Assembly (NCBI GenBank): GCA_964496095.1 | Contig: CAZBWU010000006.1 | Coordinates: forward strand, 1-56,309 | DNA from: an uncultured Gammaproteobacteria bacterium | GTDB taxonomy: Bacteria; Patescibacteriota; Patescibacteriia; Magasanikbacterales; GWA2-37-8 | DNA: 56,309 bases | Reading direction: 5' to 3' | Part shown: positions 21,245 through 23,333 of the stretch, piece after piece | Layout: each line of letters begins with the position of its first letter | Numbering within the stretch: position 1 is the first letter of the stretch | Position numbers and translations under genes: made by a program | The notes under the pieces: generated by a model | The model's database searches: none | Seen by the model: only the letters and a program-made list of their open reading frames with translations | Told to the model about the DNA's origin: nothing

Positions 21245-21347
21245 TTATTTTATAAGCAATCCTACAATCAACAAAGCCACAATATTGGCCACCTTAATCA
21301 CCCCAGCAGTAGAAGCTAAAAAGCTTCACTGCGGGGCAAGTCGGGTT
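21245..21347 (-). pseudogene. Displaced duplicate of the hppA 3' end, interrupted by a 40-bp hairpin element
   Basis: AACCCGA|element|TGATTAAGGTGGCC...ATAAAATAA reads [20 protein letters not shown] once the element is removed. Confidence 0.92.
21301..21340 (-). mobile_element. 40-bp bulged-hairpin element, copy 3
   Basis: CTTG CCCC GCAG T GAAGCT TTTT AGCTTC T A CTGC T GGGG. Confidence 0.8.
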
Positions 21348-23333
21348 TTACTTAATAAGCAGGCCAACAATTAGAAGTGCAACTATGTTCGCAACTTTTA
21401 TCATAGGGTTTATTGCGGGACCAGCAGTATCCTTGTATGGATCACCAACGGTGTCGCCAGTGACAGCTGCTTGGTGGGCAAAAGATCCTTTACCTCCGTA
21501 GTTTCCTTTTTCAATATATTTCTTGGCATTATCCCAAGCGCCACCACCGGTAGTCATTGAAATAGCTACGAATAGTCCAGTCACAATAGTACCAATAAGT
21601 AAACCGCCCAAAGCTTCTACACCCAAGATCCAGCCAACAAGTACTGGAGCAAGAACTGGAATGATAGCCGGAACAATCATCTGACCAATAGCGCCTTTGG
21701 TGACGATATCTACGGCTTTGCCGTAGTCTGGTTTGTTGGTTCTTTCCATTATGCCTGGAATTTCGCGGAACTGTCGGCGGACTTCTTCTACAACTTTACC
21801 AGCTACTTTTCCAACAGATTCCATAAGTAAGGAACCGAAAAGGTATGGTAATAAACCACCAATAAATAATCCGGCTAAAACTTTTGGATCGTTGATCATG
21901 AATTTTACTGTTTCAGGAAGTTTGTGAGTGTAGTCAGCAAATAGTACTAAAGATGCCAATCCAGCACTAGCAATCGCATAGCCCTTGGTGACAGCTTTGG
22001 TAGTGTTGCCAACTGCGTCAAGCTTGTCGGTAATTTCGCGAACATGTTCTGGAAGCTCACTCATCTCAGCAATACCACCAGCATTGTCGGTAATTGGTCC
22101 ATAAGCATCAATAGTTACTATAATTCCAGCTAGAGACAACATACTCATCGCAGCGATGGCAATACCGTATAATCCAGCGAGCCAATATGTAGAAAGAATA
22201 CCAGCAACAATAAATAGAACTGGCCAAGCAGTAGATTTCATAGAAACAGCAAGTCCGGCAATCACGTTGGTGCCATGTCCTGTCTCACTAGCTTTGGCAA
22301 TCTGTTTTACTGGTGCATATTCTGTAGAAGTATAGTACTCGGTAATCCAAACCATTACTGCAGCCAAAACCAAACCGATTACAGAGGCTGCGTAAATTTT
22401 ATTAACATCATATCCTACCAAATTGCCCATGAGCCATTTGGTAATTGGATAGAAAGCGATTAAGGAAATAATCCCTGAGGCAGCTAATCCTTTATAGAGA
22501 GCATTCATAATGTGTTGAGTCTTGCCCAAGCGGATAAAGAATGTGCCAAGGATAGAAGCAATAATAGAAGCACCACCCAAAATCAATGGATAAATGACAG
22601 CTTTTTCATTTCCGACAAAAAGTAAACCGCCAAGCACCATGGTAGCAATAGCAGTCACTGCGTATGTTTCAAATAAGTCAGCTGCCATACCAGCGCAGTC
22701 GCCAACATTATCACCGACATTGTCGGCAATTACAGCCGGGTTGCGTGGATCATCTTCAGGAATTCCTTTTTCTACCTTACCAACCAAGTCTGCGCCCACA
22801 TCAGCAGCTTTGGTAAAAATACCGCCACCAATTCTAGCAAAGACTGAAATTAGACTGCCACCAAAAGCAAGACCGATTAAAGCTGATAAATCTTTTGTTA
22901 ATAGATAAAAAACAGAAACGCCAAGCAAGCCGAGACCAACTACAAATAAACCAGTAGTTGAACCACCTCTAACAGCTACATCCAGGGCTTCTTTCATCCC
23001 AGTTTTGGCAGCTTCGGCAGTTTTTATATTAGCTCGTACGGAAACACTCATACCAATAATTCCAGCTAAACCGGAAAGTACGGCGCCAACAACAAAACCA
23101 ACTGCAGTGAGCCAATTTACCCCAACTCCAAGTAAAACAAAAACAACAACTGCTACCATTGCAATTGTTCGGTATTGTCTTCCCAAGTAAGCATTTGCGC
23201 CTTCTTGGATAGCTTTGGCAATCGCTTTCATGCGATCATCTCCGGCTGGCTGTTTGTTTATCCAGCTAATTAAAATAACTCCGTAAATTATTGCCAAAAC
23301 AGCTGGCAATATGGCGTAGAGAAACACTGACAT
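21348..23333 (-). CDS. hppA: Membrane proton-pumping pyrophosphatase, K+-independent type
   Basis: [32 protein letters not shown]; GNTTKA carries the Lys diagnostic of K+-independent enzymes. Confidence 0.95.

Follow-up and report, generated by a model that had tools for sequence, protein, structure and literature searches.

Surrogate-end integration is known from prophage e14 and phage 21, which enter icd of Escherichia coli and leave behind a displaced icdC fragment, and from islands in the 3' ends of tRNA and tmRNA genes. Cis-mobilisable elements (CIMEs) are gene-poor remnants bounded by attachment (att) sites, for example at the 3' end of fda in Streptococcus thermophilus, and the atp6 gene of Allomyces macrogynus provides a case of terminal gene-end swapping with a mobile endonuclease open reading frame (ORF) in organelles. 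Rickettsia palindromic elements (RPEs) insert in frame into genes; the attC sites of integrons, 57-141 nt long, bear an RYYYAAC...GTTRRRY core at the foot of a hairpin; and homology-facilitated illegitimate recombination is known from natural transformation. Here we report on the doubled 3' end of hppA, a membrane pyrophosphatase gene on a 56,309-nt stretch of DNA (contig CAZBWU010000006.1, called the window throughout) from a metagenome-assembled genome (MAG) of 1 Mb and 38% GC. This genome is labelled G000, and the other loci and genomes compared with it bear L and G labels. The last 20 codons of hppA come from a 103-bp, ORF-less insert within the gene end that carries a 40-nt hairpin, H, and the feature is one copy of a family of miniature, gene-end-replacing hairpin elements that is apparently undescribed.

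Along the minus strand, a live replacement end comes after the gene body (R', 20 codons and TAA), then a 7-nt stretch (x') that stands directly after the live TAA, the 40-nt hairpin, the original gene end (R) and the original terminator (Table 1). The gene encodes an H+/Na+-translocating pyrophosphatase, its PF03030 match being full length (profile positions 1-645 of 645), and it is complete; the pump protein is unaltered and the original end now forms part of the 3' untranslated region (UTR). The second copy consists of AACCCGA plus TGATT...AAATAA and reads in frame once the 40 nt are excised, giving the same 20 amino acids and a stop. A sequence-only reading of the region had claimed that the C-terminal 20 codons of hppA are duplicated with the same protein and 16 recoded codons, and this is correct, both codon strings that it quoted being exact: 16 of the 20 codons (16 of the 19 that do not encode Met) and 18 of the 63 nt differ, synonymously throughout. 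It had also placed the dead copy right after the live stop and before the terminator; the order was borne out, but the copy is split after 7 nt by the hairpin, at the bar that the reading had drawn in 'A|TG'. Only 47 nt lie between the copies (the 7 nt and the 40-nt hairpin), with no integrase or recombinase body among them, and no integrase was found near hppA within the window, where the neighbours are tig and an M23 peptidase gene. The hairpin has two 1-nt bulges, both on its 3' strand, and a folding z of -6.0. It is followed by TGATTAAGG and not by a T run, it is absent from the list of the terminator scan, and an intrinsic terminator was rejected as its identity; the scan returned the native site (21218-21189) and, within the displaced end, a weak one of 5 bp (21290-21275).

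Table 1. Positions in the window of the doubled hppA end and of other genes that hold a hairpin of the same family.
Feature	Position	Strand	Evidence or detail
hppA, membrane pyrophosphatase, 661 aa	21348..23333	-	PF03030 E = 2.8e-273, residues 12-655
Live imported replacement end R' (20 codons + TAA)	21348..21410	-	18-20/63 nt from nearest relatives
Codons 638-641 (CCC GCA ATA + third base of GGT), to which the imported tract probably extends upstream	21411..21422	-	
x' = AACCCGA, copies the 7 nt that stand directly left of the insertion point	21341..21347	-	direct reading
Hairpin H, 40 nt CTTGCCCCGCAGTGAAGCTTTTTAGCTTCTACTGCTGGGG, 5' tag CTTG + imperfect stem-loop	21301..21340	-	-29.5 kcal/mol
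Displaced native end R (TGATTAAGGTG...AAATAA), untranslated, Met codon split by H	21245..21300	-	
Original hppA terminator AAAAGAAGACC..GGTCTTCTTTT + T run	21189..21218	-	terminator scan; same motif 3' of hppA in relatives
comM 3' end (Mg-chelatase-like ATPase)	9437..9558	+	live end, AGCATG 9475-9480, H 9481-9520, displaced end 9521-9558
polA 5' end	25003..25122	+	displaced start 25003-25031 (10 codons), reversed 42-nt H 25032-25073, x' 25074-25079, 14-nt spacer, live start from 25094
H in frame inside rnpA, no duplicated gene end	18426..18466	+	PF00825 spans the insert

The pair of hppA ends is the longest direct repeat of the region in a repeat search. When every ORF end of the 1-Mb genome was scanned, it ranked first with a score of 61 against a background of at most 41, and the next-ranked pairs were further copies of the same architecture. 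The doubled end is genuine. A Logan contig of SRR10036080 is identical across it, and contigs assembled with MEGAHIT from two European Nucleotide Archive (ENA) samples of a sister lineage with 98% protein identity (L042) have the same layout; because an independent assembly and two sister-lineage samples agree in this way, an assembler artefact is very unlikely. Moreover, the two copies are 71% identical with a longest common run of ~8 nt, and thus share no k-mer long enough for a mis-join.

Next, we compared both ends with the nearest hppA genes that lack the insert, L044 (93% protein identity) and L002 (95%). The untranslated end differs from them at 5 and 9 of 63 nt, respectively, and the live end at 20 and 18; the untranslated copy is also the closer one to 12 of 16 relatives, and it leads without a break to the terminator motif that is usual in the genus. 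The duplication occurs in none of 15 other species of the genus, which have a single hppA end. Among codons for identical residues, 39% differ between G000 and L002 gene-wide, which predicts ~8 differing codons in the terminal 20, whereas 16/20 differ in the live end (P = 2e-4) and 9/20 in the other copy. Based on these difference counts and on the contiguity with the terminator, the untranslated end is evidently the lineage's own and the live end one that came from another lineage. The sequence-only reading had proposed that both copies were once working alleles in different lineages, and the unequal distances to orthologues support it. Its argument, that the dead copy has gathered no nonsynonymous change, is true as an observation but weak evidence by itself, since the 20 terminal residues are invariant in nearly the whole genus; likewise, the view of two alleles holds, but what it described is one copy of a recurrent hairpin-element architecture and not a one-off patch.

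The boundary of the patch, which that reading had proposed to look for upstream in hppA, lies near codon 638 (window ~21422), where codons private to G000 begin; further upstream the divergence returns to a low background. Between G000 and L002 there are 4 nt differences in codons 621-640 and 19 in codons 641-660. The codons GCA ATA are private to G000, the other three (L042, L002 and L044) all having GCT ATC, and the left junction is variable, for the foreign tract of L042 begins ~8 codons later than that of G000. A donor search for the live end in 240 genomes of the order gave best matches of 84-86%, all outside the genus, and no nameable donor among them. A related-locus scan of metagenomes returned relatives at no more than 76% identity and did not reach P0003, a 96% relative. 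The 16 differing codons between the two ends exceed the 12 expected for two independent draws from the codon usage of this genome (P = 0.03).

The sister lineage gives a second measure of these parts. Over the whole of hppA, 8.1% of the nucleotides differ between G000 and L042, including 145 of 661 third positions (22%). The hairpin has 0/40 differences, the x' 7-mer 1/7, and the live end five, all synonymous; in the untranslated end there are six, at third codon positions only, with 0/42 at positions 1 and 2. Just 3' of the doubled end, the terminator region is diverged, with indels. We also observed that the divergence along hppA is strongly mosaic: blocks of 20 codons have between 0-1 and 11-13 differing codons, a pattern suggestive of frequent recombination inside the gene.

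The same hppA site is occupied in at least 15 Patescibacteria lineages. The distant L046 has a 30-nt hairpin at the identical base, between the A and the TG of the Met codon, and a pattern scan for two hppA ends and a gap, able to detect short inserts only, found 11 further carrier genomes (Saccharibacteria, Doudnabacteria, Moranbacteria and other Patescibacteria), to which G108 was added. In these carriers the live stop abuts or overlaps AAYCC[G/T]A, followed by a 30-55-nt hairpin (foot CTTGCCCCGTAG...CTACNGGGG) and by an intact second end with its own stop; x' reads ..CCGA in 12/15 of them, irrespective of the Pro codon of the host. In 14 distinct carriers taken together, the copies differ at 164 of 259 codons, 156 synonymously and eight conservatively (31/5/155 differences at the first, second and third codon positions), and every displaced copy retains its stop in place. 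The proportion of differing codons, 63%, compares with ~60% expected for random encodings. Lineage-specific tails (VKFLKP, IPFLI, VSFLV and VGLLIK) are common to both copies within each lineage. Decay is rare, G108 having GTA where the split Met codon is expected. The frame relative to the live stop varies with the insert, 40 nt in G000 and 30 nt in L046, and several carriers have copies that agree fully over their first 13-19 nt.

Some pairs of carriers can be compared directly. The hairpins of L125 and L126 are ~96% identical, while their live ends differ at 15/18 codons against 40% in the gene body (P = 2e-4), which rules out a fixed cargo unit R'-x'-H. The gene body, both ends and hairpin of L133 and L134 are similarly diverged. 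Two carriers showed peculiarities of their own. The live hppA of L132 (Moranbacteria CAVZKT010000002.1, 3561-3669) has no in-frame stop, with an apparent 1-nt shift, and its frame runs through the hairpin to stop 2 nt past the stop of the displaced copy; either an error of sequencing or decay of the carrier could underlie this. At L126/L136 (Saccharibacteria CAZPRQ010000051.1, ~6440-6487), a second H lies 10 nt past the displaced hppA end without any further gene fragment.

The same layout is found at other genes, for which the searches with the H pattern were free of the limit to short inserts. Besides hppA, comM and polA (Table 1), der and one other protein gene have it at their 3' ends, mraZ and lepA have it at their 5' ends, with H antiparallel to the gene, and it is also present in four tRNA genes. 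Read in the orientation of H, the order is gene body, R', a spacer of 0-47 nt, x' (5-10 nt, similar to those left of the insertion point), H, displaced R and native flank. The gene body is always on the side of the CTTG tag and the displaced native end is in every case joined directly to the 3' foot of H, a polarity that is constant at 13/13 independent sites, and the distance from the junction to H is 5-10 nt throughout. A tally of replacement plus spacer ranged from 17 to ~70 nt across sites, which does not support a fixed 'measured length' of copied DNA. The genome scan found four gene-end duplications, every one with a hairpin.

The assignment of native and imported ends was repeated at three more genes of the genome. 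In comM, whose H is canonical (CCTGCCCCGTAGC...GCTACTGGGG), the live end is identical at 37 of 38 positions to the native allele of the genus member G012, and the displaced end has the AKVE residues and the downstream flank of the nearest relatives; G003 has a different H at the same comM site. At the 3' end of rpsJ (contig C1:130970-131120), the last 12 codons of ribosomal protein S10 are duplicated around a double hairpin of ~65 nt with the variant foot TTTGTCCCGATT...AATCGGGAC. Compared with G015, the displaced rpsJ end has 4/39 differences and keeps the native flank, and the live end has 11. At the 5' end of lepA (contig C2:32500-32700), G015 has natively the same sequence as the displaced start MTEN and the region upstream of it. 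There, the displaced start MTENIRNFCI continues through the reversed H as a 26-codon upstream frame whose TGA and the live ATG overlap as ATGA; translation of the live gene could in this way be coupled to the old ribosome-binding site. Judged by such comparisons, the rule of a native displaced end and an imported live end holds in 4/4 genes (hppA, comM, rpsJ and lepA).

Two tRNA loci have further structure. In L174 (G346:C5 ~44000-44200), two different H units are stacked at one T-loop position, and each has its own 3' piece of the tRNA. The piece farthest out is almost the same as the live one, and the T-stem of the middle piece is incompatible. The spacer of another tRNA case, L182, holds part of the neighbouring tRNA of the donor. 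The copy in rnpA is a natural control, as an in-frame H is tolerated there without a substitute end, and an in-frame H also lies within a PNPase-like ORF.

H is a structurally conserved family of the Patescibacteria with compensatory changes in its stem. In an alignment of 22 copies, 95.8% of the cells are paired and 10 of 15 pairs show compensatory changes; none of 500 shuffles was as good and no slid register came near the observed pairing. The stem has two single-base bulges, always on the 3' strand, and the unpaired 5' tag is CTTG, with the variants CCTG, CCAG, GAAG and TTTG. With its asymmetry between strands fixed and its apex sequence free, H may be recognised as a folded single strand. 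The strict H pattern matched 15 of 401 evenly sampled Patescibacteria genomes. Carriers have 1-16 copies per genome (16, 5 and 3 in some, with 0 matches for a reversed-pattern control), many inside gene ends, some intergenic and some in frame within genes. The exact 40-nt hairpin has no second copy in the 1-Mb genome and no match in metagenome or genome contigs, and the family surfaced only through a protein-guided pattern. A search of Rfam 15 gave no relevant match at E <= 1 for seven H-bearing loci. The domain PF01797 (Y1, the IS200/RAYT type of transposase) is present in 17/25 carriers of H and 7/25 non-carriers (P = 0.01), a weak association, and never stands next to H. Viral contigs yielded at least 119 pattern matches, about the chance expectation, few of which fold like H, and gave no sign of a phage reservoir.

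As with e14 in icd, an element-borne copy completes the gene, the resident end is displaced and untranslated, the copies differ mostly synonymously and stacking occurs at one site; the target end is present twice, as a live foreign copy and a contiguous, displaced native one, at hppA, comM, rpsJ and lepA. Unlike e14, the insert is ~100 nt long, has no integrase or other ORF and also sits at gene 5' ends, its defining part is a hairpin of 30-55 nt and not an att core with arm sites, and the surrogate end varies between carriers despite a near-identical hairpin. As for an att core at both junctions, there is only the 5-10-nt similar stretch (x and x'), with the hairpin between it and the displaced end. 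CIMEs are likewise non-autonomous units bounded by a duplicated gene end, but no cognate autonomous element or recombinase was found here and H elements are one to two orders of magnitude smaller. The parallel with atp6 of Allomyces lies in a foreign C-terminal segment that replaces the native one, left downstream as a pseudogene, and in the conserved genes that are targeted; here, however, no endonuclease ORF stands between the copies and the host is bacterial, not mitochondrial.

The hairpin itself invites other comparisons. Similar to attC, it is defined by structure, has extrahelical bases on one strand and a variable apex, and stands last, on the 3' side, in a small unit that lacks a promoter and could be depicted as circular. 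In contrast to attC, it lacks the RYYYAAC/GTTRRRY core, has a CCCC/GGGG foot with the CTTG tag and is 30-56 nt long, no IntI was identified, and the 'cassette' is a fragment of the target gene itself. Like RPEs, some copies of H are in frame inside genes (rnpA and the PNPase-like ORF), but H brings a replacement gene end and RPEs do not. Homology-facilitated illegitimate recombination would similarly give a homologous junction in the gene body, a non-homologous one with microhomology and an import of diverged DNA; it predicts neither a conserved hairpin at a fixed distance nor a constant polarity. Repetitive extragenic palindromic (REP) sequences and REPINs are short imperfect palindromes with the terminal tetranucleotide GTAG or CGTC, associated with RAYT transposases (PMC3733652, PMC3116915). 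Both they and H have the form of short, tetranucleotide-tagged imperfect palindromes near or over stop codons, sometimes in genes, and thought to be recognised as single-stranded hairpins; H differs in its tag (CTTG/CCTG), its 1-16 copies per genome, its frequent location in gene ends instead of mainly extragenic DNA and the lack of a flanking RAYT gene. The REP survey mentions RPEs, and the word 'duplication' is absent from its main text (PMC3733652). Neither in that survey nor in a full-text literature search did we find a description of a hairpin insertion that brings a replacement gene end.

Other known processes were considered and set aside. The differences between the copies are of all types and synonymous, not confined to adenines or residue-changing as in a diversity-generating retroelement with its template and variable repeats (TR/VR). 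An IS200/IS605-type miniature inverted-repeat transposable element (MITE) such as PATE has two different subterminal hairpins, where each unit here has a single one. Translational bypass, as in T4 gene 60 or the mitochondrial byps, does not apply because the live TAA already completes the protein, the gap has no matching codons on its two sides and carriers differ in their frame relation; stop-codon readthrough was also rejected. A target-site duplication was ruled out, since intergenic H copies have no flanking repeat and the older displaced end of the stacked tRNA case is the less diverged one. Immunity to a nuclease through recoding of the live copy near a cut site is unsupported, the first 13-19 nt being identical in several carriers.

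The best explanation overall, and one that we consider probable, is that an ORF-less H element was inserted at the hppA end together with an imported gene end, that the native end was displaced, and that H is a small non-autonomous mobile element. We infer that such an element would be recognised as a folded single strand, and that H would be tolerated in essential genes only within a few dozen bases of the gene end and only with a substitute end. Two routes may be envisaged. In the preferred one, a leapfrog, x', H, the resident end and a few flanking bases would leave the host as a small circle or an equivalent template, whose circle or tandem junction would join ...CTGCTGGGG to TGATAAAAGTT. 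A single crossover beside H with the homologous gene end of a naive relative would then turn the native end of the previous host into the new live end and push the resident end downstream. In the alternative, hit and rescue, H would land first and the damaged gene would be repaired by one-sided homologous recombination with imported DNA, the short displaced end being too small a stretch of homology to anchor a second crossover. Recombination between the copies would remove pairs whose ends are too alike, which would explain the synonymous saturation of the surviving pairs. Both routes would account for live ends that are foreign and for spacers that hold donor flank; the leapfrog would better explain the recurrence at one base across classes, where hit and rescue would need repeated hits. 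That H elements are a so far undescribed form of minimal mobile DNA 'leapfrogging' between related genomes, with a core of a hairpin and a few bases, is a tentative proposal, which we hold to be possible and somewhat doubtful. If it were true, the native end of one host would become the working end of the next and short allele segments would be moved between species continually, a natural counterpart of the 'recoded rescue' design that would permit life inside the most conserved genes without harm.

Several observations weigh against a mobile hairpin. Its insertion points have no clear common target motif. PF01797 is absent from G000, no moving enzyme was identified, and the Y1 genes of other carriers are not adjacent to H. 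No empty-site allele (...AACCCTA joined to TGATTAAGG), circle junction or within-species polymorphism was seen in assembled sequence. The origin of x' is ambiguous, as it looks element-borne at hppA and host-like at comM, and the evidence does not explain how a new gene-specific copy first arises. Furthermore, if the insert was inherited from the common ancestor of G000 and L042, the restriction of differences to third positions (~P = 0.001 under neutrality) may mean that the 'dead' copy is still under selection, which the mobile-element explanation does not predict. Alternatively, the insert may have reached both lineages, or been exchanged between them, after their split.

We weighed this explanation against four others. 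The topology, like that of attL and attR with a surrogate end, and the successive insertions at one tRNA site would also befit the scar of a larger integrative element, a prophage or an integrative and conjugative element (ICE) in the hppA 3' end with a surrogate end, since reduced in the manner of a CIME to its attachment regions, of which H would be a leftover arm. This is unlikely, considering that all of the at least 15 hppA cases and 12 other sites have just 0-47 nt plus H between the copies, that H is a conserved, covarying, multi-copy family found also between genes and in frame inside them, and that no integrase lies nearby in the window. An old in-situ duplication maintained by selection, for instance as an 18-aa hydrophobic mini-ORF starting from the (G/A)TG in the hairpin foot or as a regulatory 3' UTR module, would account for the open frame and stop kept in every displaced copy, for the GTG or ATG that precedes it in 14/15 hppA cases, for the exclusive third-position differences between G000 and L042 and for the similar divergence of body, ends and H in L133/L134. 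Nonetheless, at four genes the second copy is much closer than the live one to the single copies of relatives, which an old duplication would not give, and lineage-specific residues are common to both copies within each lineage. G108 has GTA, not a start codon, at the place of the putative start, no spaced Shine-Dalgarno sequence is present, the frame to the live stop is not conserved (40 nt here, 30 nt in L046), and a mini-ORF would be senseless at the 5' ends and tRNA genes that have the same layout; altogether, we find a functional second copy quite unlikely.

A single patch by homology-facilitated illegitimate recombination, with the 40-nt hairpin as an unrelated later insertion into dead DNA, is strongly disfavoured and very unlikely to be right. 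It would be in keeping with the foreign live end and its variable left junction, with the microhomology at the TAA/AAY junction and with the mosaic divergence of hppA and the frequent recombination to which it points. It leaves unaccounted for a hairpin at exactly the same hppA base in at least 15 lineages, the presence of a hairpin at all four gene-end duplications of the genome, a distance from junction to H that is always 5-10 nt and a polarity that is constant at 13 sites. As to an assembly artefact that joined the hppA ends of two strains, a metagenome-assembled genome gives some reason to consider it, but the low similarity of the copies, the identical Logan assembly and the same structure in two other samples of the sister lineage reduce its probability to next to nothing.

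If the mobile-element explanation holds, a gene-less, selfish or semi-selfish element of ~100 bases sits in essential genes, among them those of a proton pump, DNA polymerase I, ribosomal protein S10, LepA and tRNAs, by bringing a working substitute. The displaced ends would then be dated, readable footprints of DNA exchange between uncultivable lineages of the Candidate Phyla Radiation (CPR), with a nameable donor lineage in the case of comM, and the strand-asymmetric, covarying hairpin would point to an unidentified single-strand-specific recombination or transposition activity in Patescibacteria. Annotators would have to expect split 'pseudogene' tails and upstream mini-frames at gene ends and not take them for assembly errors.

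Finally, two observations were made elsewhere in the genome. The start codon of dnaE is preceded at 14 nt by a canonical H (C1:203806-203847), and nothing is duplicated there. A loose hairpin scan also returned C1:265975-266027 and C9:29026-29090, two stretches that are very GC-rich for a genome of 38% GC and that may be foreign or mis-binned DNA.

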